A program made the position numbers and the translations under genes. Below are positions 1 through 36,271 of a stretch of DNA of 36,271 bases, piece after piece; position 1 is the stretch's first letter, and each line of letters opens with the position of its first letter. The stretch comes from an uncultured Gammaproteobacteria bacterium (GTDB lineage: Bacteria; Patescibacteriota; Microgenomatia; PFEM01; CAYIUX01). The stretch is from NCBI GenBank assembly GCA_964366795.1, contig CAYIUX010000002.1, positions 1 to 36,271 on the forward strand, written 5' to 3'. A model generated the notes under the pieces. That model saw only the letters and a list, made by a program, of their open reading frames with translations, was not told where the DNA came from and did no database searches.

Positions 1-480
1 AAACAAAACGGCTAAAACAGAAAAAGTCAATCCTGCTCCGACTTCATGACCCAGCCTGGAAAGATAGATATGCCAGGGAGAAATGGCTAGTAGAAAACTA
101 GTAATTAGTGAATAGTAAACAGTGAATCGTGAATTTTTGAAAAGTTCTTTGACCAAAAAATAAGCCCCTAGAATCGTGGTTAAAGACAAAAGGACCGCTG
201 GTAAGCGAACCGAGGTGGTGGATAAACCGAGAACTTTTAGAAAAGGAATCGTCAAATAAACATAAAGCGCTGGTCGCCAATCATCATAGGCTCGGAGGAG
301 TACCGGAAACCGATAGCCATATTCATCCTTGCCGGTTTTCAAAATTGAATAGGCATTCCAACCAATAGAAACCTCGTCTAAAGAAGGGCTAGGTGGTACC
401 TCATTTAAACGATAAAGCCGAAAAAAAGCGCCCAATAGAAGAATAAGAAATAAAAGAATAAGAAAAAGAATTTTTTTCAT
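1..480 (-). CDS. GT39 (ArnT/PMT-like) GT-C membrane glycosyltransferase, 5' partial (first 160 codons; the rest lies beyond the left edge)
   Basis: Absent from the ORF track because no stop lies in the window; the frame is open from 480 down to 1. ATG at 480..478 overlaps the TGA (479..477) of the upstream gene (ATGA). My translation MKKILFLILLFLILLLGAFFRLYRLNEVPPSPSLDEVSIGWNAYSILKTGKDEYGYRFP...LLAISPWHIYLSRLGHE aligns position for position with the two adjacent GT39 paralogues. Confidence 0.8.
   Translation of the reverse strand, partial: MKKILFLILLFLILLLGAFFRLYRLNEVPPSPSLDEVSIGWNAYSILKTGKDEYGYRFPVLLRAYDDWRPALYVYLTIPFLKVLGLSTTSVRLPAVLLSLTTILGAYFLVKELFKNSRFTVYYSLITSFLLAISPWHIYLSRLGHEVGAGLTFSVLAVLF
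99..133. repeat. Imperfect heptanucleotide tandem tract, 5 units (TAGTAAT TAGTGAA TAGTAAA CAGTGAA TCGTGAA)
   Basis: Read directly. Lies in frame inside the partial GT39 and encodes SRFTVYYSLITS. Confidence 0.7.
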
Positions 481-2132
481 TCTCCTTTTACGATTACGAT
501 TGCCGGCTTGCCGTCAAGAAAATTAATTGTTTTATGAACTGAAGCGCCCACGGAAAAATCGTCCGCTCGGCCTACATACAAAATGTGTTTACTTTTTTCT
601 TCCTCTGACCATTTTATTGGCCGAAAAACGTATTTATCAAAAGAATTCCTGTCTTCGGCAAATCCTCCAGAAACAGTCCCACCAGTTCTCTGGTAGGCAG
701 CTGGATCATATTTAAGGTAAAATAGGAAAAACATATATGACTGGTCTAAATAGGGTTGATTGGAAACAATGACTTTCTCGTAATTACCCTCAATTTTCTT
801 TACTTCTTTTACTGCTTGTTCATACCCATATTGCCAAGCCTGGGAGGTAAAGTAATTAAGCTGAACGAAATATTGATTAAAAAAGTAGCCGAAGTTAAAA
901 ATAAAAAAACCCAAGACGGCAAAGAAAACCGGAAATTTTTTCCAAGAAGGAAACTTTTCAATTTTCTGCCAAAAATTCATTAACCCAAGAGCGGTAAAAA
1001 CTTGAACTACCGGTAAAAACCTTAAAGCCCTTACCGCATGGGGAACTCCACTGGTAAAAGCTGCCGGGAGAGGCGCCAGCAAGAACCAAATAAAAAGCAA
1101 AAACTTTGCCTGACGATGTTTCTGATTAAAAATCAACCAGTAAATCCCGTAGACAAAAAAGGGCAATTCGGCTAAATAAAGCAAGCCCATTCCCGGAGCA
1201 TGATGTCGAGCATCGTCACCGGCAATAAACAACCAATTAAAATTAAAATGAGAAAGATAACCGCTTAGGAATGATTGAAGATAAGTAATCCGGCGATTAT
1301 CTAAGATCAATCCTAGATAATCGTTATTGTTTATATCTCTTATTAGTTTCTGGGCCGTCCTTGAGAGAAAGACAGTTTGGTCGGAGGCAAAACTTGTTCC
1401 TTTAGCCCGCAAAAATATTTCTGGATTGGATAAAGTCATCTTAATAAAAGGTAGAACCAAAATCGCTCCCGTTAATAAGGCTACTGCCAAATATTTCTTT
1501 GGTAACTTTAGCCAATCTTTCCTCCAGATTATCAACAGAGCCAAAACCAAAAAGGGGGTAAAAATTTTCTCCGCCTGATAAACATAGATATTTAAACCAG
1601 CAAAAAGAGCACACAAAATAAAAAACCAAGGCTTTTTTAAACCCTTAAGAAAAAGGAGGGCAATTAAGATGTTAAGGGTCATTCCTACCCCCGACTCAAA
1701 AGCTGCCCGGGAGAACTGAAGATGCCAGGGAGAAATGGCAAGTAAAAAGGCGCTGAGTAGTGCCCAACGAGTGGCCGATAGTGAATTTCTAAACAACTCT
1801 TTAACCAAAAGATAAACTAAAAAAACAGCTAAAACTCCAAATATGGCCGAAGGTAAACGAACCGCCCAAAGATTAAGACCGAAAAATTTAATCGGCAAAG
1901 TAGCCAAGTAAGCATAAACGGCTGGCTTATAATCATCAAAAGACCTCAAAATTAACGGTAAAAACTGACCATATTCATCCTTACCCGTCTTTAAAATCGA
2001 ATAGGCGTTATAACCTAAAGCCGCTTCATCCCAGTCCGGCGAGGCTGGCACCTTACCTAGCTGCCAGAATCGCAAAAAGATCGCCAGGATTAAGATAATA
2101 AACAAGGCGAGGATTTCTTTTTGTTTAGTCAT
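477..2132 (-). CDS. GT39 (ArnT/PMT-like) GT-C membrane glycosyltransferase, paralogue 2 of the left-end triplet
   Basis: ORF 477..2177. Preferred start is ATG 2132 (MTKQKEILALFIILILAIFLRFWQLG), which matches the N-terminal layout of the paralogues and gives an ATGACTAA 8-nt overlap with the upstream stop at 2125. First-loop DE motif PDWDEAALGYNAYSILKTGKDEYG, AISPWHLQFSRAAFE, many hydrophobic segments, C-terminal soluble domain WQYGY...FLFYLKYDP. Alternative starts at 2153 and 2177. Confidence 0.85.
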   Translation of the reverse strand: MTKQKEILALFIILILAIFLRFWQLGKVPASPDWDEAALGYNAYSILKTGKDEYGQFLPLILRSFDDYKPAVYAYLATLPIKFFGLNLWAVRLPSAIFGVLAVFLVYLLVKELFRNSLSATRWALLSAFLLAISPWHLQFSRAAFESGVGMTLNILIALLFLKGLKKPWFFILCALFAGLNIYVYQAEKIFTPFLVLALLIIWRKDWLKLPKKYLAVALLTGAILVLPFIKMTLSNPEIFLRAKGTSFASDQTVFLSRTAQKLIRDINNNDYLGLILDNRRITYLQSFLSGYLSHFNFNWLFIAGDDARHHAPGMGLLYLAELPFFVYGIYWLIFNQKHRQAKFLLFIWFLLAPLPAAFTSGVPHAVRALRFLPVVQVFTALGLMNFWQKIEKFPSWKKFPVFFAVLGFFIFNFGYFFNQYFVQLNYFTSQAWQYGYEQAVKEVKKIEGNYEKVIVSNQPYLDQSYMFFLFYLKYDPAAYQRTGGTVSGGFAEDRNSFDKYVFRPIKWSEEEKSKHILYVGRADDFSVGASVHKTINFLDGKPAIVIVKGE

Positions 2133-3768
2133 TCTGTTGAGTAACTCTTTCATAGACCACCAGTATTTCGCTGTCATTCAAAAGGTTAAAAGTTTTAATC
2201 CTGCTGGCATGGTCTGGCACCCTGGTGGGAGCATCAACATATAAAGCTCCCTCAACTGTACGCGGGCCCTCGGCGCCAAAAAAATGATATTTGTCGAATC
2301 CCCTCACGTGCACAAACCCAAACGGATCACGCTCAACTTGTGCTTTTTGCCAAAAAGATTTAGGTGAATATTTAAGATAAAAAAGAAAATAAATATATGG
2401 TCGACCAAGATTATCTGTGAACCAAATCTGGTCGTATTTATTTTCGACTGATTTAAGATAATCGATCACTGGTTTATAGCCATATTGCCATTCACCAGAG
2501 TATTCTACTGGATAGTGACGCCAGTAGCCATGCTGAAAATAAACGACACTCATCGTTACTAACCCCCAACAGGCAACCAGCAACCCGTAACCGATAAACC
2601 GTTTTTGTTTGTCTAAAAAATTCCAAAATTCAACTACCCCTAACGCCGTTAGAATTTGCCAGGTTGGTAAGGTGGTTTCAATTCTTAAAGCATGGGGTGT
2701 TTCTCGGGCGGTGGCCGCCGGGATAATTCCCACCAGCAGCCAAAAAGGGACTAACCACCAGTAGCCCGGTTTTTTCTTGATTAATATCAAAATTCCAGCA
2801 ACTAGAAAAGGCAATTCCCAAAGATAAAATTCACCAACATCCTGGGTGGAAAATTTTGGATTGCCATCACCTTTAAAAAACAAAAAGTAGGGATTAAAAT
2901 GGTCAAAGTAATGGCGCAAAAACAACCGCAGGTAGCCCCAACGCCGGTTGTGAATAATTCTCGACCACCAGACCCAGTTATCATTGGTCATTTCTTGATT
3001 GGCAGTTTCCACCACACTGGCTTCGGTAAAAATATTAACTTCTTTAAAGCGTAATTTGGCTTGGGGCGTCAAATAAAAACGCAAGGCTGGCAAAAGTAAA
3101 AGTAGCCCAAGTATGGCTGACACCAGCAACCAATTTCTTTTCTGCCAAAGTCTTTGGCGAAAAGCAACCACCAAACCGAAAACCAAAAGAGGGGTTACTA
3201 CCCGAGCCGTATTGAAAGTCTGCAAACTTAAAGCAAAACTTAAAGCCGCTAAAGGCAGAAATCGTCCGTCTTGATTAATCGCTCTTAAAAAACAAAAAAT
3301 ACCAGCAATGATAAAAAAAGTTGCCACATTCGCCTCAAATGCTGCTCGGGAAAGCATAATATGCCAAGGCGAAATTGCCAACAAAAAGCTCGCAATTAAA
3401 GGAAGCGTCAAAGAAGTAGAAGGGAACATTTCTTTCACCAAAAAATAGGTCAGCAAAACAGTTAAAACACCAAAAAATGCCGAGGGAAAACGAACTGCAA
3501 ACTCATTTAAGCCAAAAATTTTAACCGGCAAAATTGTCAGATAAGCGTAAACAGGTGGCTTGAAATCGCCGAATGACTCAAGATAATTTAAAGGCAGAAA
3601 GCGACCGAATTCATCCCGCCCAGTCTGCCCCAAACTATAGGCGTTATACCCCCAAGCGGCTTCATCCCAATTCAAAGCCGGCGGGTTTATTCCCAATCCC
3701 CAAAACCGCAAAGCCGCCGCCAAAATCAAAACTAATATTAAGGGTAAAGATTTTTTATACTTTTCCAT
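2125..3768 (-). CDS. GT39 (ArnT/PMT-like) GT-C membrane glycosyltransferase, paralogue 3 of the left-end triplet
   Basis: ORF 2125..3789. Preferred start is ATG 3768 (MEKYKKSLPLILVLILAAALRFWGLG), a 14-nt overlap with the upstream stop at 3755. Motifs NWDEAAWGYNAYSLGQTGRDEFG, AISPWHIMLSRAAFE, C-terminal EWQYGY...FLFYLKYSP. Confidence 0.85.
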   Translation of the reverse strand: MEKYKKSLPLILVLILAAALRFWGLGINPPALNWDEAAWGYNAYSLGQTGRDEFGRFLPLNYLESFGDFKPPVYAYLTILPVKIFGLNEFAVRFPSAFFGVLTVLLTYFLVKEMFPSTSLTLPLIASFLLAISPWHIMLSRAAFEANVATFFIIAGIFCFLRAINQDGRFLPLAALSFALSLQTFNTARVVTPLLVFGLVVAFRQRLWQKRNWLLVSAILGLLLLLPALRFYLTPQAKLRFKEVNIFTEASVVETANQEMTNDNWVWWSRIIHNRRWGYLRLFLRHYFDHFNPYFLFFKGDGNPKFSTQDVGEFYLWELPFLVAGILILIKKKPGYWWLVPFWLLVGIIPAATARETPHALRIETTLPTWQILTALGVVEFWNFLDKQKRFIGYGLLVACWGLVTMSVVYFQHGYWRHYPVEYSGEWQYGYKPVIDYLKSVENKYDQIWFTDNLGRPYIYFLFYLKYSPKSFWQKAQVERDPFGFVHVRGFDKYHFFGAEGPRTVEGALYVDAPTRVPDHASRIKTFNLLNDSEILVVYERVTQQND

Positions 3769-4960: not shown

Positions 4961-4978
4961 TATCTATATTTTAAATCA

Positions 4979-5671
4979 CTAATCAAGAAAACGATACTTT
5001 AAAAGCACCCAAAGAATTCGAAATGAATCTTTCCAGCTGATTTTTTTGCCCTGCCAAAATTCTCGGCCCGCATAACTGATAGGCACCTCATAAATCCGCA
5101 CTCCCTGTTTAAGTAGTTTAACCGTAATTTCTGGATCCCATCCCCAACCATTTTCTTTAAGGGTAATTTTTTTAAAAAACCGCCGAGGGAAAAGCTTATA
5201 ACAAACTTCCATATCTGAAAGGGTAGTGTTATACAAAACATTAGTCACAAAACTCAAAAACTTATTCCCCATCATGTGCCAGAAAAACATATTCCGATGC
5301 TCTCCGGTAAACCTTGAACCATAAACAACCTCAGCCTTGCCCTCATGGATTGGTTTGAGTAGCCGAGGAATATCTTGAGGGTCGTACTCCAAATCAGCGT
5401 CCTGAATGATAATATAGTCTCCCGTGGTTTGTCCAAAGCTGCTCCTTATCGCTGCGCCTTTTCCACCTTGTTGAGAACGAAAAATCAATTTTAAATCGGG
5501 ATGCTCTCGTTTAAGTTTCTCCATTATTTTCCGACTACCATCAATTGATTTATCATCAATTATAACAATTTCCTTTTTTACTCCGGTTAGTTTCACTCTC
5601 AATACTCGTCCAACTAACTCTTCTAAGGTTCTTTCTTCGTTAAAAACCGGAATTACAATTGAAAGTTTCAT
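4979..5671 (-). CDS. GT2 glycosyltransferase, Dpm1/GtrB-like polyprenyl-phosphate sugar synthase candidate
   Basis: ORF 4979..5758. Preferred start is ATG 5671 (MKLSIVIPVFNEERT), which forms an ATGA overlap with the upstream stop at 5668. GT-A motifs VIPVFNEE, IIDDKSIDGS, IIQDADLEYDP, MEVCYKLF. Confidence 0.85.
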   Translation of the reverse strand: MKLSIVIPVFNEERTLEELVGRVLRVKLTGVKKEIVIIDDKSIDGSRKIMEKLKREHPDLKLIFRSQQGGKGAAIRSSFGQTTGDYIIIQDADLEYDPQDIPRLLKPIHEGKAEVVYGSRFTGEHRNMFFWHMMGNKFLSFVTNVLYNTTLSDMEVCYKLFPRRFFKKITLKENGWGWDPEITVKLLKQGVRIYEVPISYAGREFWQGKKISWKDSFRILWVLLKYRFLD

Positions 5672-6546
5672 AACAACTGGACCAAAGCTTTCAGTAATCC
5701 TTGCCAAAATAGCCAATCTCCGGAAAAAGAGGCCTTCAATAAATGATATGGTAGCCAAAAAATATGTTGGAGTAACATTTTAAAATCACCATTTTTCCAA
5801 ACAAACAAAAACTGATTTTTATAAGCAAAAACTTTCATTTGTTTTTTGCCAAAAGTAGGGATATTAGTCGTTTCGTGATGGTGGATAACAATTGACCTCG
5901 GTTCGAAAAGAATCTGCCAGCCCACCTTTTTTGCTCTCCAGGATAAATCAATGTCCTCCCAATAAGCCGGTCGAAAAATAGTGTCCATTCCTCCGAGCTT
6001 TAACCATTTTTCTTTATCCACAGCCATACTTCCCGCTGTCGCCCAGAGAGTATCAGTTTTGTCCTGATTTTCAGCTCGCCAATGAATCAAAAATCCTCGT
6101 TTGAATTCTCCCAATCCCCGACCGCTATAAACTATTTTTCCATCTTTAACATCTTTTTCTTTACAACCAACGGCGAAAACCATGGGGTCCTCAAAATGTT
6201 TCACCAGCGGGTTTAAAAAATTAGGCTCTGGGATAACATCATTGTTCAATAAAACCACTATCTCACCTTTTGCCGTCTTCACTCCGCTATTACAAGCGGC
6301 GGCGAAACGCTGATTTTTTTGATGGACAACCACTTTTATTTGAGGATAATTCTTTTTTAAAAAACTAACGCTCTCGTCAGTCGAAGCATCATCAACAACA
6401 ATTACCTCCCAATCCGCCGGCCGGCGGACAGGCCCGCTTTTCTCCCACTTTTGACAGGCTACCAGTACCATTGGCAGGTTCTTTTCCAAAAGCCGCCGAC
6501 CGTTGTAATTAGGAATAACAATGCTGACTTTAAGGTTCATATTCAA
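5668..6546 (-). CDS. GT2 glycosyltransferase (WbbL/rhamnosyltransferase-like subgroup)
   Basis: 292-aa ORF. Motifs VSIVIPNYNG, VIVVDDASTDES, AAACNSGV, VVLLNNDV. No TM segments. Start 6546 or 6540; either overlaps the upstream stop at 6530. Confidence 0.85.
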   Translation of the reverse strand: MNMNLKVSIVIPNYNGRRLLEKNLPMVLVACQKWEKSGPVRRPADWEVIVVDDASTDESVSFLKKNYPQIKVVVHQKNQRFAAACNSGVKTAKGEIVVLLNNDVIPEPNFLNPLVKHFEDPMVFAVGCKEKDVKDGKIVYSGRGLGEFKRGFLIHWRAENQDKTDTLWATAGSMAVDKEKWLKLGGMDTIFRPAYWEDIDLSWRAKKVGWQILFEPRSIVIHHHETTNIPTFGKKQMKVFAYKNQFLFVWKNGDFKMLLQHIFWLPYHLLKASFSGDWLFWQGLLKALVQLL

Positions 6547-16264: not shown

Positions 16265-16298
16265 TATATGCTAAACTAGGGATAAAAGTAAAAAAATC
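16265..16298. promoter_or_regulatory. 34-bp divergent spacer between the flippase-led minus-strand run and the plus-strand DUF2079-like gene
   Basis: This is one of only two places in the window where divergent transcription must start. A TAAACT -10-like hexamer lies at 16272..16277. No convincing -35 was seen; promoter elements probably extend into the flanking coding sequence. Confidence 0.25.
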
Positions 16299-24017: not shown

Positions 24018-24045
24018 TAAGATAAGAAATAAAATGAATTTATGT

Positions 24046-28001: not shown

Positions 28002-29545
28002 TGATTTGAATCAAGAATTACTTGGTAAAGCCTCATTGAGTAGCGACGGTGAGGTCGCTGATATTCGGCGGCTAACTTAAGGGGCCAATTGCCAGGGACC
28101 TGAATAGTTTCATTAAAAACGAAGTAAGTCGGCATAATCTTGGCTTTTTCCAAAACTTCCACGGGGATTTTTTCAACTGGGAAAAAGCCTTTAATCTCCA
28201 CGTTGGGGTTATCCCAAAGATATAATTCGAGTGAGGCTGGCATTAAACCAAAGGTACCTTCAGTGGCAATAAAAATTTTGCCATCTTTGGCTTTTTCCTT
28301 AGCGAAAGCCGCAATCTCTTTTATTCCATAACCGGCTGGCCACGAAAGAATATATTGATCACGATCACTTATAGCAATTGGCGCTGTTTGAGGATTAAGA
28401 AGAAGTTTTAAATCAACCGATAAAGACATTGCTGTGGTTAAAATTAACACCGCCACAAAAATCAATTTGCTTTTTACCCGCTTCGCGATTTCTTCTAATG
28501 ATAAGGCCGCTAAAACAAATAAATATAAACTCATAGAAAATATAAAACGGGGATATAGAATATTGCCAAAAACAGCCAAACCCAGGAAAGGAATGGCAAA
28601 CCAGCCAAATAAAAGCAATTTTTCGCGAAATTGATTCCGAAGATTTAATAAAGAAAATAGAACCAAAAGCCCTAATGGCCAAGTTAAGTATGTCAAGAGC
28701 CAATTCAATAACCCACTAAGGTGACTTTTTAAATAGTAGAAGGGGTGTTTAATCCATTCTTCAAATGGAAAAACAAAAAGGGTGTTTTTTTGGGCAATGA
28801 TGTGGAAAAAAGGAGAAAGCCGCAAAATATTATAAAAAAATTGAGAAATAAGCACTGCCAACAAAATTAAACCCGCCCATTTAAAGAGATTTTCCCGCCA
28901 TTTTTTTGCCCGCCAATCAAAAAGAAGCAAAGTCGAAGGAAGCAAATAAATACTCAAAAAACCCGATGTTTTGGTCAAAACTCCTCCACCTAAAACCGCA
29001 CCCAAGATGAGGGCAACATCTAATCGAAGAGTTTTAACGAGTAAAACGGCGAAAAAGAAGCTTAAAACGCTAAAAGTTCCCACCATGGCATCCATTAAAG
29101 CCATCCGGTCGTAAACTAAAGCAAAAGGGGAAACAAGATAAAGAAACGAAGCCAGGAAAGCGATTCGCCGGTTTTTAAAGAGTAAATAGGTTGAAACCCA
29201 AATGGCAGCCATTGAAACCAAACCCGTAAAGGTAGAAACCAACCGTCCAGCCGCAATCGGATCTTGGATAAAATGCATCATAATCATCGTCACCCAGACA
29301 TACAAAGGCTGCTTGCCATCGGTTAGGGAAATAAATCGCCAGTTAGCATCGTTTTTGGCAATTTGAGCCCAACGCAGATAAATTGCCTCATCGACAAAAA
29401 TTGGTAAAGCGGTAAGTTTAATCAATCGGAATAGTAGGAAAAAAGTAATCAAAAGGAAAGCAATGATAATTTCCACCCGATACTTTTTCAATAAGTCAAG
29501 AAACATATACTCAAAATTATACAACAGGAGCCAAAAATAGTACAC
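27998..29545 (-). CDS. GT39/ArnT-like GT-C membrane glycosyltransferase (divergent member)
   Basis: 515-aa ORF from GTG 29545. ATG 29506 (MFLDLLKKYRVEIIIAFLL) is an equally plausible start. First loop LPIFVDEAIYLRWAQIA (DE motif), about 11 hydrophobic segments, C-terminal soluble domain. Confidence 0.75.
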   Translation of the reverse strand: MYYFWLLLYNFEYMFLDLLKKYRVEIIIAFLLITFFLLFRLIKLTALPIFVDEAIYLRWAQIAKNDANWRFISLTDGKQPLYVWVTMIMMHFIQDPIAAGRLVSTFTGLVSMAAIWVSTYLLFKNRRIAFLASFLYLVSPFALVYDRMALMDAMVGTFSVLSFFFAVLLVKTLRLDVALILGAVLGGGVLTKTSGFLSIYLLPSTLLLFDWRAKKWRENLFKWAGLILLAVLISQFFYNILRLSPFFHIIAQKNTLFVFPFEEWIKHPFYYLKSHLSGLLNWLLTYLTWPLGLLVLFSLLNLRNQFREKLLLFGWFAIPFLGLAVFGNILYPRFIFSMSLYLFVLAALSLEEIAKRVKSKLIFVAVLILTTAMSLSVDLKLLLNPQTAPIAISDRDQYILSWPAGYGIKEIAAFAKEKAKDGKIFIATEGTFGLMPASLELYLWDNPNVEIKGFFPVEKIPVEVLEKAKIMPTYFVFNETIQVPGNWPLKLAAEYQRPHRRYSMRLYQVILDSNQ

Positions 29546-29555
29546 TTAAAAAGCA
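29507..29555. promoter_or_regulatory. Divergent spacer between GT39 27998..29545 (-) and GT39-like 29556..31094 (+)
   Basis: The spacer is only 10 bp if GTG 29545 is the start, and 49 bp if ATG 29506 is used. AT-rich with TATACT/TATACA-like hexamers. The position is forced by the divergent gene arrangement, not by a recognised consensus. Confidence 0.2.
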
Positions 29556-31094
29556 ATGAAAATAAAAAACAAATTACTTTTAATTAGTTTTATTCTCCTA
29601 GTAGCAACCTTTCTTCGTTTCTGGCATCTGCCTGAAAGGGCAATTTTTTTAGGTGACCAGGGTCGAGATTTACTTCTAATAAGAGAAAGTCTTTTGGCTG
29701 GTAAAATCCCTCTCGTTGGTCCACCCACTAGTCAGAGAATCAACAGTGGGCCAGCCTATTTTTATCTTATTATCCCCCCTCTTTTATTGACTAATTTCCA
29801 TCCTCTTGGCCCAATATATTTTTTTACCTTTTTTGGGGTATTAAGCTGCTTTCTCATTTTTAGACTTTGCCTAAACCTTTTTGGTTTGGTCCCTGCCCTG
29901 ATAAGCACTTTGCTCTATGCCATCTCACCCTTAGTAGTTCAGCGTACTTTGGGTTTTTGGAACCCTGTCCTTGTTCCCTTTTTTACTTTTTTAATTTTCT
30001 TTTCTCTATACCAAATAGACAAAAAGCTCTTTTTTTGGTTTCCTTTATTGGGTCTTTTTTTAGGTATCGCTGTCCAATTTCATCCTTCGGTCTATGTCAT
30101 TTTTTTTCTTGTTCTAGGCTGGTGGTTTTATTTTATTTTCCAAAAGAAAAGAGAAAATAACCGTAAAAAAATTCTAAAATGGTCGGCCCTTGGTGGTTTT
30201 TGTTTTTTGATAACTCTTTTACCTTATTTAATTTTCCAATTCCAAAATGATTTTACCGATTTAAGAAAAATCATATTTATTTTGCTGGAGAAATTTTTGA
30301 TTAATCAACCTCAAGGGGAAACTGGAGAGTCCTTTTTTAACCAATTTAGCAATTTTTTTAGCCAACAATTTCAGCCGCTAAGTTTGTCAAACTCACTTCA
30401 CTTTAACTTCATTTTAGGTTTAATTTTAGTTGTTTTTCCTTTTATTTTTAGAAAAAAGAGGGGTATCTTCTGGCATGTTCTTTTCTCTATCTGGCTTTTG
30501 AGCGGATTGGTTATTCTTAGTCTCTACCCAGGCGTAGTTTTCCCTCATTATGCGAGTTTTATTTGGCCGCTGTCTTTTCTAATCTTGGCTTCCTTTTTGA
30601 AAACTCTTTGTGATTACTTCCCCAGAAAGGCAGTTTTAATTTTGGGACTTTTTTGGGTGGCTATCCAAACCCCAAAGTATTTTTCTAATTTCTCTTATAC
30701 TTACGACCTAAAACGAACCCAAGAAGCGATCCAGGTAGTCACCAAAGAAGCCAAAAACCAACCTTTCTCTCTCGTTCTCCTTTCGCCTCATTCTCCTTCA
30801 GATGCTCATTTTCAATATTTTTTAACCTTAAAAGGTGCCCCTCTTAAAAAAATCAATAGCTCCTTAGCTAAATTCTTATTTTTAATTTGCGAAGTAAATT
30901 GTCCTCACCTAAAATCTTTAGAAGATTTGAAAATTGTCGATAGTGACTGTCTCCCAGATTGCCCGCCAATGGAGCAACAGAAAATTGTTGATTTGAAAAA
31001 ATGGTCCTTTTTAAGACGAACTGATTTTCCCTGGGGAGCGGTTTATATCTATCAACGCCCCCAAAATTCCCAAACCAAGAAAAACTATCGTTAA
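29556..31094 (+). CDS. GT39-like GT-C membrane glycosyltransferase, GD(Q/E)GRD-loop subfamily (paralogue of 33008..34519)
   Basis: 512-aa ORF. N-terminus LRFWHLPERAIFLGDQGRDLLLIRESLLAGKIPLVGPPTS, AISPLVVQRTLGFWNP, C-terminal soluble domain with DAHFQYFL. The second of the two plus-strand genes. Confidence 0.75.
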   Translation: MKIKNKLLLISFILLVATFLRFWHLPERAIFLGDQGRDLLLIRESLLAGKIPLVGPPTSQRINSGPAYFYLIIPPLLLTNFHPLGPIYFFTFFGVLSCFLIFRLCLNLFGLVPALISTLLYAISPLVVQRTLGFWNPVLVPFFTFLIFFSLYQIDKKLFFWFPLLGLFLGIAVQFHPSVYVIFFLVLGWWFYFIFQKKRENNRKKILKWSALGGFCFLITLLPYLIFQFQNDFTDLRKIIFILLEKFLINQPQGETGESFFNQFSNFFSQQFQPLSLSNSLHFNFILGLILVVFPFIFRKKRGIFWHVLFSIWLLSGLVILSLYPGVVFPHYASFIWPLSFLILASFLKTLCDYFPRKAVLILGLFWVAIQTPKYFSNFSYTYDLKRTQEAIQVVTKEAKNQPFSLVLLSPHSPSDAHFQYFLTLKGAPLKKINSSLAKFLFLICEVNCPHLKSLEDLKIVDSDCLPDCPPMEQQKIVDLKKWSFLRRTDFPWGAVYIYQRPQNSQTKKNYR

Positions 31095-32177
31095 GCCAAG
31101 ATTAATCATTGTTATTGGCGGATTCCAGTGACCATAATATAAAAACGGGGCATAGCGTAAAAGACTCCCCATGGAAAAACTAATCATAAACCAGACAAGA
31201 AATCTGTTTTTACTTATAAAAGCAACAAATGGCAAAACCCATAAAAGATACCAGGGTTGAAACCCCAAATACCAATGAGTAACAACAATTATCGCTAAAG
31301 ACATTAAAATAACTGCCAGCTTAATCAGGTATTGTTCCTTAATTTTTTTCATTAAACCCAGAATTAAAACCGGCAATAACACCGCCGAAACATACTTAAG
31401 ACCAATTGAGAAAAACCAAGACAAAAATGAATTGAAATATTTCTTTTTTAACAAGAGGTAAAAGGCTAATAATGTAAAAAAAACCATTACCCCATCATAA
31501 TGACCACTAACTAAACTTTCTATCAAAACTAAGGGGTTAAAAGCATAAAAAGCGAGATTAAATATTATATTTTTTCCATTTAAAGCCTTTGAAATTTTAT
31601 ATATTAGCCAAATTGTTCCCAAATAGAAAACCGCCATTATCGCTTTAAACCAAAAAAGTTGCAGGATAAACTTTCCCAACCCCAAAACAAAAGGGAAAAC
31701 TGAAAGACCTATCCAAAAAGGAGGAAAGACGCTTGGGCGATGAGTCCAGTGCATAAATCCTAACATTGGATCTCCGGGAAAATCCAAAGGTTTAACCTGA
31801 TAAGGATTTTGGTGGTAAAAAGCAACTATCTTGGCATCAAAAATATAATTAAAAATGTCATGAGAAAAAGCCGGATAAGAAAAAAGCAAAACTAAAGCAG
31901 TTAAACCAATCAACCACCAAAGATTCTTAGGAAGTAACTTATCTTTTTTAGCCAACCATAAAAGTAAAACGTAAAAAACGAAAAGCAGCAATAATATTCC
32001 TAAGTAAAAACCCGTAGATAAAGGGCGATTAAAATAACCAATCAACTGAAAATTTCTTTGGATTGTCTGCCACCAAGAGAGACGAGTTAAAGTTAGACCA
32101 AGGTCAATTTGAGTAAAGGAGTAAAGAAAAAGCAATAGTATACTTACAATCCAGCCAAAACTAATCAACTTAGTCAT
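31011..32177 (-). CDS. Polytopic membrane protein, GT-C-like (NPY-loop, DUF2029/GT87-like); activity unassigned
   Basis: 388-aa ORF, almost all hydrophobic segments. Loop FSHDIFNYIFDAKIVAFYHQNPYQVKPLDFPGDPMLGFMHWTHRP. ATGACTAA 8-nt overlap with the upstream Alg5-like GT2. Family assignment weak. Confidence 0.5.
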   Translation of the reverse strand: MTKLISFGWIVSILLLFLYSFTQIDLGLTLTRLSWWQTIQRNFQLIGYFNRPLSTGFYLGILLLLFVFYVLLLWLAKKDKLLPKNLWWLIGLTALVLLFSYPAFSHDIFNYIFDAKIVAFYHQNPYQVKPLDFPGDPMLGFMHWTHRPSVFPPFWIGLSVFPFVLGLGKFILQLFWFKAIMAVFYLGTIWLIYKISKALNGKNIIFNLAFYAFNPLVLIESLVSGHYDGVMVFFTLLAFYLLLKKKYFNSFLSWFFSIGLKYVSAVLLPVLILGLMKKIKEQYLIKLAVILMSLAIIVVTHWYLGFQPWYLLWVLPFVAFISKNRFLVWFMISFSMGSLLRYAPFLYYGHWNPPITMINLGLTIVFLGLGILGALIDINRSPGKISSS

Positions 32178-33015
32178 AGTAACCCCTTAAATCACTTAAT
32201 TTAACCCTTAAAATTTCTTTTAACATTTCCCAGGATTCCTTAAAAAATTTTCTTTGTTTCCCCTGGGCAATATCCTTATCCTGCCATTCTACTAGAACTT
32301 CAGCAATCCGACGACCTTGTTTTTGAGCAATAAATAAAAGCTCAACATCAAAAGCACCCACTCGCCAACCCCTAGTTTCTTTGGTTTCTTTAAAAATCTG
32401 CAACCGAGAAAACAAATCCTTAGCGACTTCATTTTTGAAAGCTTTAAAACCACATTGAGTATCAACAATATTTTTTAAAAGGATTGCTTGTCTGATAAGA
32501 CGAAAGCTAGCCGAGGCTAATTGGCGGAACAAAGAAAAGCCCATCCGTTGCTTCCCTCGCGAGCCAATTACTAAATCAAAGCTTTGTTTAAAATAAGAAC
32601 CTTGCTTCGCAAGAACCTTGTTTCTAGCGAAATTAGGCAAAATTTTTTCTATCTGATTTAAAGGGGTTGATTGGTCCATGTCAGTAAATAAAACAATTTC
32701 TCCCCTGGCTTTTTTTATTCCTGCTCCAACCGCAAATGGCTTTCCGGTGTGTTTATTTTTAAGAAGTTTAAAACGGGGGTGATTTTTGGCAAATTCTTCT
32801 ACTATCTGAAGGCTTTCATCATTTGAACCATCATCAGAAATGATTACCTCGCTTTGATAATCTTGTTTTTTTAAATAATCGTCGACTTCGTTTAGAGTCC
32901 CCCTTTTAAGATTAGTTTCTTCGTTATAACAGGGAATAATAACTGATAGAAAGGGTTGCTTATTGCGAAGCAACAAGCTCTTCTTATTGCGAAGCAACAA
33001 ACTTTGTTTATTCAT
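32170..33015 (-). CDS. GT2 glycosyltransferase, Alg5/Dpm1-like polyprenyl-phosphate sugar synthase candidate
   Basis: 281-aa ORF. Motifs LSVIIPCYNEE, ISDDGSNDES, LFTDMDQSTP, VDTQCGFKAF (Alg5-type TQCGFK). N-terminal duplicated SLLLRNK(K/Q) extension. ATGAATAA overlap with the upstream stop at 33008. Confidence 0.85.
   Translation of the reverse strand: MNKQSLLLRNKKSLLLRNKQPFLSVIIPCYNEETNLKRGTLNEVDDYLKKQDYQSEVIISDDGSNDESLQIVEEFAKNHPRFKLLKNKHTGKPFAVGAGIKKARGEIVLFTDMDQSTPLNQIEKILPNFARNKVLAKQGSYFKQSFDLVIGSRGKQRMGFSLFRQLASASFRLIRQAILLKNIVDTQCGFKAFKNEVAKDLFSRLQIFKETKETRGWRVGAFDVELLFIAQKQGRRIAEVLVEWQDKDIAQGKQRKFFKESWEMLKEILRVKLSDLRGYYD
32956..33003. repeat. 24-nt direct tandem duplication (21/24 identical); each copy contains an 8-bp stem hairpin
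   Basis: On the minus strand: AGTTTGTTGCTTCGCAATAAGAAG / AGCTTGTTGCTTCGCAATAAGCAA, codons 5-20 (SLLLRNKK SLLLRNKQ) of GT2 32170..33015. In each copy (C/T)TTGTTGC-TTC-GCAATAAG can fold. Confidence 0.8.
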
Positions 33016-34519
33016 TACCTTGATAGTGTACTAACTTCATAACCGCAATTCCACCTGGCGCTGGCCAACTGCCAACAATTTCTGCCCTTCCGAAACCAGC
33101 AATCTCCCAAAGAGAATGACCCAAGGGTTTACAGTCAGCAATCTCACAGACTACTAAGAGTTGGTCTGTAACAGTTTTTCTTTCCGGATCAATTTGGGGA
33201 TTTTCAATTGTAATTGGTTTGCGTCCCCAAATTTCCAAAAAATAACGATAAGCATGGTCGGAATTTTGGCCAGTGATTAGGGCAAAGTTAAATGGTTTAC
33301 CTTCGGTTTTTTCTAGAATAATTTTGGCAATTTGTTTTGTTTGCTCAAGTTGGCGGTTTGCTGGATAACGAAAAGAGATGCCCCGAAGGTTAACAAAAAT
33401 AATAGAGCAATAGAGCAATAGAGCAAGAGAGCAAGAGATTTTATTAATTCTGGCGATTCTAGTTAAGGCAAAAGCGGTAAGCAGAAATGGTAAAGGAAAC
33501 ATAAAGCCAAAATAATAATCATAAATAGGCTTTTGATAAAAAATAAACAGACCAACACCAACAATCAACCAAAGTCCCAAAAGAGAGCATCTCTGAAAAA
33601 CTTTCTCCTGCTTTCTTTTTTTAAACCAGAAAAAGAAAAAAGTTACTAAGGAACCAAAAATGAGAAAATACCCTAAAGTTGTTTGATTATTAGTGACTAA
33701 GCGATTAAAAAGCCGAAAGCTAACATCGGTAATGATAGGGAAAAATTTTCGCCAAACAAAACCTGTTTCTTCCCCAAATAAAATAAATCGGTAAAGAGTT
33801 TGAAAATTGGGGAAGTTATGTCTTAATTCGAATAACAAGAATGGTAACCAACCTAAAAGAAATCCCCCAATTGCCCCAAAATAATACTTTAAATATTTAA
33901 ACTGACGAAAAAACCTTAAAAGATAAACCGCGACGACAACCATCAAAAACACAGCCAAATAATGAAGCTGAATCAAAATGCCAAATAAAAATCCTATTAA
34001 TAATAGAAACTTTGGTTTGCCCTCCACCACCATTTTCCAAGTTACCCAAATAATCAAAAGTGAGAAAAATGGCATCAAATTCGGATTCCAAGAAGAACGA
34101 GAATAAGCAACAACTAAAGGCGAAATAGCGTAAAGTCCAGCGGCTAACAATCCAACCCTATTATTAAAAAAATCTTTTCCTGCTTTATAGACCAAAAATA
34201 CTGTGGCAATGCCGAAAAGAGCCACCATCACTGCCGGACCAACCGGATCTAAACGAAAAGCCCATAAAAATGGAATCATAAAATAGTAGTAAATTGGTCC
34301 CAGGAAAAAACCACCCACACTGGCGGTCGGACCTAATAAAGTAAATTTATGGTCAACGATTATTCTTTTTACCACTAAAACATCTCGACCCTCGTCACCT
34401 AAAAACGTTATATAATCAGCAATCCTATAAAGCCGCAAAAAAGCCCCAAGCAAGATAACAAAAACAAGAAGAATAAACTCAATTTTGTTTTCCTTAATCC
34501 AATTGATTAACCTTTTCAT
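33008..34519 (-). CDS. GT39-like GT-C membrane glycosyltransferase, GD(Q/E)GRD-loop subfamily
   Basis: ORF 33008..34534. Preferred start is ATG 34519 (MKRLINWIKENKIEFILLVFV), forming an ATGA overlap with the upstream stop at 34516. Motifs LRLYRIADYITFLGDEGRDVLVVKRII, AISPLVVAYSRSSWNP, DHAYRYFL. Confidence 0.8.
   Translation of the reverse strand: MKRLINWIKENKIEFILLVFVILLGAFLRLYRIADYITFLGDEGRDVLVVKRIIVDHKFTLLGPTASVGGFFLGPIYYYFMIPFLWAFRLDPVGPAVMVALFGIATVFLVYKAGKDFFNNRVGLLAAGLYAISPLVVAYSRSSWNPNLMPFFSLLIIWVTWKMVVEGKPKFLLLIGFLFGILIQLHYLAVFLMVVVAVYLLRFFRQFKYLKYYFGAIGGFLLGWLPFLLFELRHNFPNFQTLYRFILFGEETGFVWRKFFPIITDVSFRLFNRLVTNNQTTLGYFLIFGSLVTFFFFWFKKRKQEKVFQRCSLLGLWLIVGVGLFIFYQKPIYDYYFGFMFPLPFLLTAFALTRIARINKISCSLALLLYCSIIFVNLRGISFRYPANRQLEQTKQIAKIILEKTEGKPFNFALITGQNSDHAYRYFLEIWGRKPITIENPQIDPERKTVTDQLLVVCEIADCKPLGHSLWEIAGFGRAEIVGSWPAPGGIAVMKLVHYQGNE
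33401..33440. repeat. Octanucleotide tandem tract AATAGAGC x3 + AAGAGAGC + AAGAGATT
   Basis: Read directly; frame checked. Encodes ISCSLALLLYCSI in GT39-like 33008..34519. Confidence 0.8.
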
Positions 34520-35211
34520 CGAAGCTTTCTCCAAAGTTTAAAAAGATTAATAAGACTTCCAATGACAACCTTAATATTCGCACCAGTCTGCTTGCCTTGC
34601 CTTCTTGGATAATGACCAACTCCAATTTCGGCGAATCTAAATCCTAAACGCTTGGCTTTTACTAAAAATTCAATCTGGGTCACTTTTTCTTCGGCTTCAA
34701 GAGGCTGAACTTCCTCAAAAACCTTTCTTTTTATAAGTTTAAAACCACAAGAATAATCTTTAACATCAAGACCAAATAAAATTTTAGCAATTAAGTTCCA
34801 GATAAAGCCGTAAAAGCGCCTAAGGGCTGAATCAGCTCTTTTTATGCGGTATCCTAAAATCAAGTCAGCTTCTTTTGTAAAAGGTAAAAATTTTTTTATA
34901 TCCGAAAAATCAAATTGACCATCGGCGTCGGTAAAAGCCACCCAGGAATATTTACTGGCGGCAAAACCAGACTTTAAAGCCGCCCCATAACCACGATTAG
35001 GAGCGTGAGTAATCATCCGAACCTGGGGATTTTTCTTAATTAAGCCCTCAACAATTTCACCGGTTTTATCAGTTGAACCATCATCAACAACGATAATTTC
35101 CCATTTTTTGGTAATTTGAGGAAGAATCTTAGCCGCTTTAGTAATCGTCGCCTTAATATTCGTCTCTTCGTTGTAAGCAGGGAAAAAAACCGAGAGTTCT
35201 TTAACTTTCAT
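34516..35211 (-). CDS. GT2 glycosyltransferase, Dpm1/GtrB-like polyprenyl-phosphate sugar synthase candidate
   Basis: ORF 34516..35226. Preferred start is ATG 35211 (MKVKELSVFFPAYNEE), forming an ATGA overlap with the upstream stop at 35208. Motifs VVDDGSTDKT, AFTDADGQFD, YSCGFKLIKRKVF. Confidence 0.85.
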   Translation of the reverse strand: MKVKELSVFFPAYNEETNIKATITKAAKILPQITKKWEIIVVDDGSTDKTGEIVEGLIKKNPQVRMITHAPNRGYGAALKSGFAASKYSWVAFTDADGQFDFSDIKKFLPFTKEADLILGYRIKRADSALRRFYGFIWNLIAKILFGLDVKDYSCGFKLIKRKVFEEVQPLEAEEKVTQIEFLVKAKRLGFRFAEIGVGHYPRRQGKQTGANIKVVIGSLINLFKLWRKLR

Positions 35212-36271
35212 TTTTTGCTTTTCCAAATGACACGGGTATACATGAAGTAGTTGTAGGGAACAACAAGGAAAACAATAATAAAGGGTAAAAGAATTTGGCG
35301 ATATTGCGGACCGAGAATTTTTACCCCCAACGTCCCGGCAACAATCATAATCAAAAGCGCTCCGGCGGAAGTAAGATTAAAATGAAAGAATTTTTTCAGA
35401 ATTTGGGTTACCCCGCGAATTTGTTTGGCTTTAAAAGTCCAAAGATTATTAAAGGTGAAATTGGAAATTATTGATAATTCGGTCGAAAGTGCCCAAGCCA
35501 ATGACTCTGGCCAGTACCAAATAGCAGCAAAAAGCTGAAGAGTAGTCGCATTAACTACATAACCAATAAAACCAACGACGCAAAATTTAAAAAACTGTTG
35601 TGAGCGTTCAAGGCGGATTTTGGTCGTCTGAATTACCGTTTCAATAATGTCTTTAATAAATTGTTTGTTAAAACCGACTTTCGCCTTACCAGCTCGTCTA
35701 TCCTCATAAATAGCTGGAATTTCGATAAATTTTGCTCCTGTTTTGGAAAGTTCATAAATCATCGTTGATTGAATCACAAATCCCTTAACGTTTAACCGAC
35801 CAAGATTAACTTTATCCAAAACTCCTTTTACCCGAATCGCCTTAAAACTACCGGCTAAGTCCTTTACTTCCCTAATTCCTCCCCACCAATAATTAATTAA
35901 GTCGTTTGAAATAAAATGGGTCAATTTTCTAGACCAATTGAAATTGTTTTTGCCCCCCTTAACATGGCGAGAGGGAACTACCACGTCATAGCCTTCTTCA
36001 ATTTTTTTAAGCATTTCGGGAATATATTTGGGATTCCACTGAAAATCAACATCATTAGGAATCACCACATCAGCTTTTAGCTTCTCCATCGCGTATAAAT
36101 AAGCCTGAATCATGGAAATTCCCAAACCCCTGGGTGTTTCTAAAAGATAAAGGTTTTTTCTGGTTTTTGCCATTTCTCTAACTATCTCGCCCGTGCCGTC
36201 AGGAGAATGACTATCAACAATCAAGGTAAAAAAATCATATTTAGGATTTTCCTTAGCAATTTTATCTAAGG
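35208..36271 (-). CDS. GT2 (Dpm1-like) fused to a C-terminal GtrA-like 4-TM domain; 5' end lies beyond the right edge
   Basis: The ORF-track start at 36224 is only an internal TTG. The frame stays open to the window edge (..LDKIAKENPKYDFFTLIVDSHSPDGTGEIV). GT-A motifs VDSHSPDGT and VIPNDVDFQ. The C-terminal segment FFKFCVVGFIGYVVNATTLQLF...ELSIISNFTFNNLWTFK...four hydrophobic helices is GtrA-like. Confidence 0.8.
   Translation of the reverse strand, partial: LDKIAKENPKYDFFTLIVDSHSPDGTGEIVREMAKTRKNLYLLETPRGLGISMIQAYLYAMEKLKADVVIPNDVDFQWNPKYIPEMLKKIEEGYDVVVPSRHVKGGKNNFNWSRKLTHFISNDLINYWWGGIREVKDLAGSFKAIRVKGVLDKVNLGRLNVKGFVIQSTMIYELSKTGAKFIEIPAIYEDRRAGKAKVGFNKQFIKDIIETVIQTTKIRLERSQQFFKFCVVGFIGYVVNATTLQLFAAIWYWPESLAWALSTELSIISNFTFNNLWTFKAKQIRGVTQILKKFFHFNLTSAGALLIMIVAGTLGVKILGPQYRQILLPFIIVFLVVPYNYFMYTRVIWKSKK

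Follow-up and report, generated by a model that had tools for sequence, protein, structure and literature searches.

A conserved GT-C glycosyltransferase locus of a probable Microgenomates-group bacterium and its proposed role in envelope-glycan assembly

Contig CAYIUX010000002.1, analyzed here over its complete length of 36,271 bp (the window), carries 27 coding sequences back to back, of which 16 encode polytopic glycosyltransferases of the GT-C type. A collinear locus is kept in at least 4 other Levybacteria-like genomes, with 10-19 GT-C genes each, and a smaller core recurs in 3 more distant genomes of the Candidate Phyla Radiation (CPR). We read the locus as a chromosomal, lineage-conserved, two-armed system for the polyprenyl-phosphate-based assembly of an envelope glycan, and would put the probability of this reading at about 0.55. 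The contig carries no marker gene, and its best protein matches suggest that the host is a Microgenomates-group (CPR/Patescibacteria) bacterium near Levybacteria and Shapirobacteria.

Of the residues encoded, 70.5% belong to GT-C proteins, which comprise 8 PMT_2 proteins, 3 YfhO proteins, 2 PTPS_related proteins, and 1 each of DUF2079, GT87/DUF2029-like, and MptA/B-like type, while the other 11 genes encode 8 GT2, 1 GT4, 1 Wzx-type MOP flippase, and 1 FAD enzyme. Pfam and NCBIfam thus return the same counts as a preliminary description of this DNA, which had listed 27 genes with 16 GT-C, 8 GT2, and 3 others. Its assignment of the large membrane proteins to GT-C families holds as well: 14 of the 16 exceed the Pfam gathering threshold (8 PMT_2/PMT, 3 YfhO, 2 PTPS_related, 1 DUF2079), the remaining 2 are placed through PF09594 and PF26314 matches of their homologs and through NCBIfam MptA, and structure models of 2 of the proteins have the fold. 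YfhO and DUF2079 are, we assume, members of the GT-C clan (Pfam CL0111), whose families also include PMT, PMT_2, STT3, PTPS_related, and GT87. A partial list of the clan has been published (PMC7801869). Even at a generous background of 1%, 16 GT-C genes among 27 would arise with a probability of about 1e-25, which excludes chance as the origin of the cluster.

Related loci came from a GTDB scan with the GT2-GtrA protein (L005, L006, and L007) and from context look-ups with homologs of the GT87-like and PTPS proteins (L011 and L013-L016). Copies of the window itself (L003, L008) come from the replicate assemblies ENA ERZ1292626/29/32, labeled "Hain_H43_01um" (Hainich groundwater, well H43, 0.1-um fraction). 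The genes of the window are listed below by coordinates, strand, product, and supporting matches.

1..480, minus: partial PMT_2 group I GT-C, N-terminal 160 amino acids (aa); Pfam PMT_2 1.2e-5, 48% identity to PMT2_a; its ATG and the stop codon of the gene upstream overlap as ATGA, and the L008 assembly breaks at the same base
477..2177, minus: PMT2_a, group I PMT_2/PMT with motif WDEAALGYNAYS; Pfam PMT_2 1.6e-14, D35/E36; orthologs 57-70% identical in L011, L013, and L014
2125..3789, minus: PMT2_b, group I PMT_2/PMT, likely ATG at 3768; PMT 4.1e-14, PMT_2 6.9e-14, called with 547 aa in L008
3755..4960, minus: GT87/DUF2029-like GT-C of B-class fold, 401 aa; placed by homologs and by AlphaFold2 (AF2)/Foldseek, with no Pfam match of its own
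4979..5758, minus: GT2_a, polyprenyl-phosphate hexose synthase class (AglJ/ArnC/PgfS-like), likely ATG at 5671; Pfam GT2 2.1e-33
5668..6546, minus: GT2_b, soluble cytoplasmic-type GT2, MftF/EpsD-like; Pfam, NCBIfam
6530..8809, minus: YfhO_a, GT-C; Pfam YfhO 3.1e-28
8810..9874, minus: GT4, cytoplasmic, GT-B fold; Pfam Glycos_transf_1 1.5e-27; flanked by 2 YfhO genes in the window, L011, L015, and L016
9871..12336, minus: YfhO_b, GT-C, likely ATG at 12198; Pfam YfhO 3e-24
12168..12935, minus: GT2_c, cytoplasmic GT2 with C-terminal helical region; 40% identity to its paralog GT2_e
12989..13897, minus: GT2_d, rhamnosyltransferase/GlfT1-like GT2; NCBIfam TIGR01556 1.8e-19, GlfT1 1.7e-8
13894..14802, minus: GT2_e, cytoplasmic GT2; Pfam, NCBIfam
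14795..16264, minus: Wzx-type MOP flippase, about 11 transmembrane (TM) segments; Polysacc_synt_3 4.4e-50, NCBIfam MOP flippase 8.7e-37
16299..17762, plus: polytopic DUF2079 protein with motif YYDFGIF (D38); Pfam DUF2079 3.3e-32
17721..19436, minus: PTPS_a, PTPS_related GT-C, ATG at 19406; Pfam 5.2e-10, AF2 fold
19393..21045, minus: PTPS_b, PTPS_related GT-C; Pfam 4.1e-7, 35% identity to PTPS_a
21002..22480, minus: FAD enzyme, homolog of UDP-galactopyranose mutase (UGM), likely ATG at 22432; NCBIfam, PDB alignment
22425..24050, minus: PMT2_c, group I PMT_2 GT-C; Pfam PMT 1.1e-11
24046..25689, minus: PMT2_d, group I PMT_2 GT-C; Pfam PMT_2 8.1e-7, 48% identity to PMT2_c
25686..28001, minus: YfhO_c, GT-C; Pfam YfhO 6e-26
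27998..29545, minus: PMT2_e, lone-clade PMT_2 with motif VDEAIYLRW, likely ATG at 29506; Pfam PMT_2 2.8e-11
29556..31094, plus: PMT2_f, group II PMT_2 with motif GDQGRD; Pfam PMT_2 8.8e-9
31011..32177, minus: MptA/B-like (GT87-related) GT-C, 388 aa, motif SHDIFNY; PF26314, NCBIfam MptA
32170..33015, minus: GT2_f, polyprenyl-phosphate sugar synthase class, PgfS/ArnC-like, translationally coupled to the MptA/B-like gene; Pfam, NCBIfam, called in 2 other assemblies
33008..34534, minus: PMT2_g, group II PMT_2 with motif GDEGRD, likely ATG at 34519; Pfam PMT_2 3.3e-11; orthologs 37-67% identical in L005, L006, L007, and L015
34516..35226, minus: GT2_g, polyprenyl-phosphate sugar synthase class, ArnC/DPM-like, ATG at 35211; Pfam GT2 1.4e-32, gene call confirmed
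35208..36271, minus: GT2 fused to a GtrA/DPMS transmembrane domain (DPMS-type synthase); GT2 1.8e-17, GtrA_DPMS_TM 6.6e-15; orthologs 373-393 aa

All-against-all BLASTP sorts the 16 GT-C proteins into 8 clades. Group I of the PMT_2 proteins holds the edge gene and PMT2_a, b, c, and d at 31-48% identity among them, group II pairs PMT2_f with PMT2_g at 28%, and PMT2_e forms a clade alone; the 3 YfhO proteins share 36-38% identity and the PTPS pair 35%, and the DUF2079, GT87-like, and MptA/B-like proteins are single members of their clades. The GT-C fold was tested on 2 representatives with AF2 models built from deep alignments. For PTPS_a (pLDDT 93), Foldseek returns AglB, AftA, STT3, PglB, AftD, and ArnT with probability 1.0 and TM-scores of 0.41-0.47, and for the GT87-like protein (pLDDT 84) it returns GPI-MT-I (9wno, TM-score 0.57), ALG3, ALG6, and PimE, with TM-scores of 0.50-0.57 over the set. 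The GT87-like protein has 864 database homologs, many of the closest of which carry PF09594 and/or PF26314, and its close homologs in Candidatus Levybacteria are named "glycosyltransferase 87 family" or "DUF2029 domain-containing" proteins by NCBI. The 388-aa MptA/B-like protein has a precomputed match to PF26314 (MptA_B_family) and matches NCBIfam MptA at 4.9e-9; in hhalign, the GT87-like profile finds it weakly (E 6e-4, probability 28%) and gives an uninformative E of 0.065 with DUF2079. A BLASTP comparison of the GT87-like and MptA/B-like proteins is not significant, yet it lines up the HD motif.

The PMT_2 proteins lie further from solved structures. Single-sequence PDB searches with PMT2_b, and likewise with YfhO_a, gave no matches, and a 13-sequence profile of PMT_2 group I retrieved only STT3 (7.7e-4) and ArnT (0.095), both weakly, and no solved PMT; PF02366 (PMT) matches the PMT_2 proteins at 20-53 bits, and the loop-1 DE motif is conserved. 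A canonical oligosaccharyltransferase of the STT3/PglB/AglB type was considered and rejected, with the motif WWD[YWF]G found in none of the 27 products and the sole STT3 match in the window being a sub-threshold one of 18.9 bits (1.2e-3) in PMT2_g. Two structural details of individual GT-C proteins may be recorded here. The model of PTPS_a (17721-19406) contains a predicted extracytoplasmic beta-sandwich at residues ~450-524, weakly like the side domains of GH30 glycosidases and followed by a final TM helix at 528-556; the beta-sandwich may be an acceptor-binding module. YfhO_a and YfhO_c are without a C-terminal TM helix that is present in YfhO_b and most orthologs.

The preliminary description had rested the GT-C assignment on an acidic residue in the first predicted extracytoplasmic loop of every large membrane protein. 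Aligned with orthologs from related genomes, this residue proves invariant or at least 90% conserved in all 8 clades. It is D35/E36 in PMT_2 group I, a D-x-G-R-D motif that is invariant in 10 sequences of group II, DEAIY.RWA in PMT2_e (invariant in 5 orthologs), a conserved [HY]D in the MptA/B-like protein, the invariant H35/D36 of the PTPS_related proteins, and the invariant D85 of an HDI motif in the GT87-like protein. For DUF2079, which has 4,284 homologs at E<=1e-3, an alignment of 47 diverse homologs shows E179 in every sequence and D38 in at least 90% of them. In the YfhO proteins, K64, D70, and P77 (YfhO_a numbering) are invariant within the pattern K-N-x(5)-D-x(3)-Q-x-Y-P-W, and here the residue first quoted for 2 of the proteins has to be replaced: D70 of YfhO_a, in FLITDPVRQLYPW, is the equivalent of the MPDV aspartate of YfhO_b, whereas the "PADT/PGDL" aspartate nearer TM1 is not conserved, the sequence S-T-Y standing there in YfhO_b and 2 orthologs. 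Hydropathy gives 5-13 TM segments per GT-C protein, with a short K/R-rich N-terminus before TM1, and by the positive-inside rule loop 1 should therefore lie outside. This simple analysis, together with homology to solved GT-C folds, agrees with the outward-facing loops first proposed.

The donor side of the system is represented by 4 GT2 proteins, the GT2-GtrA fusion, GT2_g, GT2_f, and GT2_a, whose best NCBIfam and PDB matches (AglJ, ArnC, PgfS, and DPMS), spanning the greater part of each protein, place them in the polyprenyl-phosphate sugar-synthase class. The fusion matches the dolichyl-phosphate mannose synthase (DPMS) of Pyrococcus furiosus (PDB 5mlz) at 8.8e-26 across both the catalytic and the TM domain; GT2_a matches NCBIfam AglJ at 2e-33 over nearly its full length and ArnC at 5e-19, GT2_g matches ArnC at 3e-21, and GT2_f matches PgfS and ArnC. 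Because all of these scores fall under the equivalog cut-offs, they assign the class of synthase and not its sugar specificity. Three of the synthase genes adjoin a GT-C gene, GT2_g overlapping PMT2_g, GT2_f overlapping the MptA/B-like gene, and GT2_a lying 18 nt from the GT87-like gene. There are 2 kinds of predicted flippase module, the four-helix GtrA-type domain fused to a synthase and the Wzx protein, so that the Dpm1/GtrB-class GT2 and GtrA/Wzx-type modules named in the preliminary description are both present. The other 4 GT2 proteins, GT2_b, GT2_d, and the paralogous pair GT2_c/GT2_e, appear to be of cytoplasmic rather than Dpm1 type.

The same description had found no nucleotide-sugar synthesis in the window, and this statement must be withdrawn in view of the FAD enzyme at 21002-22480, a full-length UGM homolog that keeps the substrate-binding residues. 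Its best solved relatives over the full length are eukaryote-type UGMs (PDB 4u8l, 3ute, and 4dsg, ~2e-15), and aligned to the Aspergillus fumigatus enzyme it is identical at H63, R182, W315, Y317, R327, Y419, R447, Y453, and N457, which we take to be the flavin-site histidine and the arginine, tyrosine, asparagine, and tryptophan residues that bind UDP-galactopyranose. The bacterial Glf equivalog model gives it only 44 bits against a cut-off of 304, for which reason we call it a UGM-like mutase with its substrate unproven. On these alignments, the locus probably holds a nucleotide-sugar step, a pyranose-to-furanose mutase. The enzyme also scores 375.8 bits with the NCBIfam "hypothetical protein" model PRK07208.1-4, whose cut-off is 389, and this uncharacterized family may consist of sugar-nucleotide mutases.

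Searches of the 27 products with Pfam and NCBIfam recovered no WecA/WbaP-type initiator, Wzy, Wzz, or ABC exporter, and none turned up in the stretches beyond the locus border in 4 relatives, as the preliminary description had maintained for the window. In the related loci, ~130 kb in all, there is likewise no PF00953- or PF02397-type initiator, Wzz, or Wza, and neither these loci nor the stretches at their borders contain Wzy, a PCP protein, or an ABC exporter; no acceptor-synthesis genes were recognized in the window or the examined flanks. PTPS_b has a sub-threshold match to Wzy_C (0.0073; 16.6 bits against 31.7).

Conservation of gene order is the second line of evidence. L005 (Candidatus Shapirobacteria CG10, with a GT2-GtrA protein of 74% identity), L006 (a Microgenomates bin), and L007 (a Paceibacterota bin) have in common a core of GT2-GtrA, GT2_g, PMT2_g, (PTPS), GT2_f, and PMT2_e. 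A collinear locus of at least 44 kb with ~19 GT-C genes lies on a 73.7-kb ENA contig (L014/L015) in the order GT2-GtrA, GT2_g, PMT2_g, GT2_f, MptAB, PMT2_e, YfhO_c, PTPS_b, PTPS_a, Wzx, GT2_e, GT2_d, GT2_c, YfhO_b, GT4, YfhO_a ... GT2_b ... GT2_a, GT87, PMT2_b, PMT2_a, and 10 GT-C genes follow the order of the window over 21 kb of L011, the 253-kb Levybacteria contig JAUSEW010000027.1 (GCA_030651475.1). L015 and L016 (GCA_900218045.1) keep the central block PTPS-PTPS-(GT2)-Wzx-GT2-GT2-GT2-YfhO-GT4-YfhO collinear with the window, and the adjacency of PTPS and Wzx extends to L007. Orthologs are 45-70% identical across genomes and paralogs within the window 28-48%; because paralog identity does not exceed 48%, the duplications predate these lineages, with each copy maintained since. 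Relatives differ by gain and loss of individual GT-C genes, and among the loci examined the DUF2079 gene, the UGM-like gene, and PMT2_c/d occur in the window alone, PMT2_f being found otherwise only in L005.

The borders of the locus can be read from the same comparison. In L005, L006, and L007, trmD follows directly beyond the GT2-GtrA gene, and the locus therefore very probably ends naturally at the right end of the window. On the left, relatives run on by 1-5 further GT-C genes; in L013, 3 more follow the ortholog of the gene cut at the edge of the window, and then a ComB-like phosphatase gene forms the left border, so the locus probably extends past this end of the window by a small number of GT-C genes. 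In L016, the border consists of DsbA/DsbD/HMA genes. The proposal that the locus is larger than the window therefore probably holds on the left and not on the right. The term "island", if understood as a mobile insertion, does not suit a locus that is collinear, vertically conserved, and chromosomal; a mobile or viral origin was rejected on the same gene order on chromosomal contigs of 54-253 kb, the trmD neighbor, and the absence of tRNA genes, Rfam matches, and recent repeats from the window. Just outside the locus, flanking genes include ugd in L006 and rmlA/rmlB in L007.

Some relatives hold genes within the array that the window is without. L015 (15580-16633) and L011 (3181-3420) contain genes for DAGK_prokar (undecaprenol/diacylglycerol-kinase type), a PAP2 phosphatase, and DUF5652, and the presence of DAGK_prokar and PAP2, candidates for recycling the lipid carrier, inside one relative's locus fits a heavy use of polyprenyl-phosphate carriers. 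Membrane-protein genes with no Pfam match lie between GT2-GtrA and GT2_g in L006 (11082-12191, minus) and L007 (11062-12222, minus; 369-386 aa), between GT2_e and GT2_d in L015 (14027-14674) and L016 (14802-15467; 215-221 aa), and in L013 (10095-11825, 576 aa), and these may be extra, unrecognized components. A GT2-GtrA protein 77% identical to that of the window is encoded on L004 (DATLBE010000027.1, 2,485 bp), which is binned as "Nevskiaceae bacterium" and is probably a CPR contig mis-binned into a gammaproteobacterial metagenome-assembled genome.

Family membership, the GT-C fold in 2 clades, the conservation of catalytic residues, and a gene order kept among relatives are shown directly. 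From homology, gene content, and gene order, we infer the donor type, the flipping, the sidedness, the link between the 2 arms, and any acceptor as follows. The 4 GT2 proteins of the Dpm1/GtrB/ArnC/AglJ class would load single sugars from nucleotide sugars onto polyprenyl phosphate at the inner membrane face, the lipid-phosphate sugars would be flipped by the synthase-fused GtrA-type domain and/or by Wzx, and the 16 GT-C enzymes would use them as donors on the outer face, each probably making one linkage or serving one acceptor. A second arm is implied by the conserved block in which the non-Dpm1 GT2, GT4, and Wzx genes lie beside the PTPS pair. It would make a short lipid-linked oligosaccharide in the cytoplasm, possibly containing furanose, with the UGM-like flavoenzyme, the 4 non-Dpm1 GT2 (one of them rhamnosyl-/GlfT1-like), and the GT4; the initiating phosphoglycosyltransferase would be encoded elsewhere. 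Wzx would flip this primer, and the 2 PTPS_related proteins are its likeliest handlers because their adjacency to Wzx is conserved. The outer-face GT-C enzymes could then extend and branch the glycan, perhaps serving other surface acceptors too, and the differences in GT-C content among relatives would give lineage-specific surface glycans.

Several points weigh against this two-armed scheme. The fold test covers 2 clades, PTPS_related and GT87-like, and the topology comes from a crude hydropathy analysis. The window and the examined flanks hold no initiating phosphoglycosyltransferase, which leaves the oligosaccharide arm incomplete as seen, and it is gene order that ties the PTPS pair to Wzx. 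Wzx could flip lipid-phosphate monosaccharides instead of an oligosaccharide, as has been proposed for GacK (PMC8035078), and the acceptor of the cytoplasmic glycosyltransferases might be a soluble compound or a protein. Finally, the taxonomy of the host derives from best protein matches.

The locus might instead consist of independent GT-A/flippase/GT-C modules through which acceptors synthesized outside it (surface proteins, pilins, S-layer, or teichoic-acid-like polymers) receive single sugars. No backbone would then be built here, and this comes close to the multi-branch decoration system favored in the preliminary description. The modules for it are indeed present: 3 donor-synthase genes are paired with a GT-C gene, the PMT/PMT_2 and YfhO families include known protein- and teichoic-acid-decorating enzymes (PMC8035078, PMC5836110), GT2_a, GT2_f, and GT2_g match the streptococcal protein-glycosylation synthase PgfS, and neither a polymerase nor an initiator is among the window products. 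However, just 4 donor synthases stand against 16 GT-C proteins, and the 5 cytoplasmic glycosyltransferases are grouped with the UGM-like enzyme and Wzx in a conserved block of the kind that typically assembles lipid-linked oligosaccharides, which adds an arm to the decoration first envisaged. Where they have been characterized, moreover, GT87/MptA-like enzymes elongate polymers or make lipoglycans. Decoration as the whole function of the locus is the less likely reading, but a serious rival. We think it improbable that the locus is dedicated to protein O-mannosylation, with the 8 PMT_2/PMT proteins as orthologs of bacterial PMT drawing polyprenyl-phosphate-mannose from the DPMS-like fusion. 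The PF02366 matches of up to 53 bits, the DE motif in loop 1, and a DPMS-type synthase in the locus would suit such a pathway, but the group I profile finds weak STT3 and ArnT matches in place of any PMT structure, Pfam reports no MIR or other PMT accessory domain, the PMT_2 family is broad and includes ArnT-type lipid and polysaccharide transferases, and half of the GT-C proteins come from other families.

A conventional O-antigen or capsule locus of the Wzx/Wzy-dependent type, with the genes for initiator, polymerase, and chain length immediately past the contig, is a very unlikely reading of the window. Such loci would account for Wzx, the GT4, several soluble GT2, and perhaps the sub-threshold Wzy_C match of PTPS_b, but the right border is trmD in 3 relatives, the other borders are of ComB-like and DsbA/DsbD/HMA type, no initiator, Wzz, or Wza occurs in ~130 kb of related loci, and GT-C proteins take 70% of the coding capacity. 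An assembly artifact or an array of decaying pseudogenes deserves hardly any credence; coverage in the replicate assemblies is low (2-4x), both contig ends fall inside genes, and PMT2_c is without a canonical start, but independent assemblies and a Logan assembly reproduce segments exactly, the 25 internal open reading frames (ORFs) are intact with conserved catalytic residues, and the same gene order stands on contigs of up to 253 kb from other samples.

The layout of the window is compact. Of the 27 genes, 25 lie on the minus strand, the longest ORFs cover 99.6% of bases, many neighboring genes overlap at start and stop by 4-8 nt, and G+C is even along the window at 33-41%; it contains neither a tRNA nor an Rfam match, and no duplication of recent date is seen at the DNA level. 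At the left contig end, a PMT_2 gene is truncated to its first 160 codons, and the right end removes the first ~20-40 codons of the GT2-GtrA fusion gene. The replicate contigs stop at exactly these 2 positions inside genes (1 and 36271) despite no repeat in the contig beyond ~276 nt at 71% identity, for which low coverage or strain variation could be the cause. The window is accordingly a whole contig, and the assemblies of this population do not extend it. Around the 2 plus-strand genes, DUF2079 and PMT2_f, the divergent gaps are only ~34 and 10-49 nt (16264-16299, 29506-29556) and the convergent ends overlap by 42 and 84 nt (17721-17762, 31011-31094), so their promoters and terminators must sit within adjacent coding sequence. 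For PMT2_c (24017-24071, minus), no canonical start yields a full TM1, the canonical-start ORF 22425-24017 beginning inside TM1. The in-frame upstream codons ATT AAA CAT AAA TTC ATT TTA TTT CTT ATC TTA TTG (IKHKFILFLILL) mirror the N-terminus of PMT2_d, and an AAGGAG lies 6 nt before the ATT at 24050, which itself overlaps the stop codon of PMT2_d; the start is probably a non-canonical AUU, or else an ATG has been misread as ATT.

Nothing in the locus is categorically new because all of its component families are known. What is new is that one conserved locus gathers 16-19 GT-C enzymes of 8 clades together with 4 donor synthases and a cytoplasmic arm, in a type of organism whose genomes are about 1 Mb, and this is among the densest concentrations of GT-C genes of which we are aware. 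A full-text search that covered few subscription papers found no paper linking CPR/Patescibacteria with GT-C, YfhO, PMT_2, GT39, or GT83, so a prior mention is possible; the nearest statement credits one Microgenomates genome with "29 genes of glycosyl transferases" (PMC7143001), another paper mentions only prophage-borne group 1 glycosyl transferases, and glycosyltransferases are not discussed in the Hainich study or in an overview of the Patescibacteria. The CPR/Patescibacteria envelope, and how these ultra-small, probably host-dependent cells face partners and phages, is largely obscure, and the locus offers a concrete, conserved gene set (4 lipid-sugar synthases, 16-19 outward-facing transferases, a UGM-like mutase, and Wzx) from which a complex surface glycan can be predicted. 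Poorly characterized GT-C families (PTPS_related, DUF2079, YfhO, and 2 PMT_2 subgroups) also gain dozens of diverged, intact members from it, and the candidate donor synthases that adjoin GT-C genes may help to assign function in these families generally. More tentatively, it is possible that a single GT-C "factory" takes up ~3-5% of the DNA of Microgenomates CPR bacteria, and that this factory polymerizes and branches a complex, possibly furanose-containing envelope heteroglycan wholly on the outer face. If so, the gain and loss of GT-C cassettes would create a diversity of surface glycans governing host attachment or phage recognition, and the factory would parallel the logic of mycobacterial arabinogalactan and lipoarabinomannan in an unrelated lineage.

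The closest functional precedents are the multi-component transmembrane glycosylation systems CsbB/GtcA/YfhO, GtlA/GtlB, GacI/GacK/GacL, and phage GtrA/B/C (PMC8035078, PMC5836110). In these as in the window, a GT2 makes a polyprenyl-phosphate sugar, a GtrA- or Wzx-type flippase accompanies it, a GT-C enzyme transfers the sugar outside, YfhO members are present, and GT-A and GT-C genes are adjacent. The known systems, however, consist of one to few scattered pairs (3 in Bacillus subtilis, 3 in Lactococcus lactis) that act on a defined acceptor polymer such as lipoteichoic acid, wall teichoic acid, rhamnan, O-antigen, or lipid A (PMC8035078), whereas the window combines 16 GT-C and 4 synthases in one locus, with the GtrA module fused to a synthase and an extra cytoplasmic oligosaccharide arm. 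That fusion of a GT2 to a four-helix GtrA-like TM domain recalls P. furiosus DPMS (5mlz), and the downstream transferases, being of PMT_2 type with a loop-1 DE motif, recall the PMT/ArnT-type acceptor transferases, although the PMT_2 proteins of the window match solved PMT and ArnT no better than by weak profile matches. Streptococcal Pgf, in which the GT2 PgfS and the GT-C proteins PgfM1/PgfM2 O-glycosylate Ser/Thr-rich regions (bioRxiv 10.1101/2024.05.05.592596), resembles the window in that the GT2 synthases of the window match the PgfS model and GT-C partners would in both cases act on extracytoplasmic acceptors, but the PgfS scores are 46-69 bits against an equivalog cut-off of 500, and the analysis yielded no sign of protein acceptors.

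The mycobacterial and corynebacterial pathways for arabinogalactan and lipomannan/lipoarabinomannan (WbbL, Glf, GlfT1/2, then the GT-C enzymes MptA/B/C, PimE, AftA-D, and EmbA-C) differ from the window in several respects. Similarity is remote (the MptA model gives 35.6 bits against a cut-off of 439), the window holds no DprE1/E2 or UbiA-type decaprenyl-phosphate-arabinose genes, in mycobacteria the genes lie scattered across 4 Mb of genome, and the host of the window is a CPR bacterium with a different envelope. In its scale and its combination of GT87-, PMT_2-, and Aft-like folds, the locus nevertheless resembles these pathways. In both, a cytoplasmic lipid-linked primer would be made by GT2 enzymes, rhamnosyl- and galactofuranosyl-type members included, together with a UGM, and after flipping, many GT-C paralogs that use polyprenyl-phosphate sugars, GT87/MptA-like members among them, would elaborate it. 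The structure models point the same way, that of PTPS_a matching AftA and AftD and that of the GT87-like protein matching PimE.

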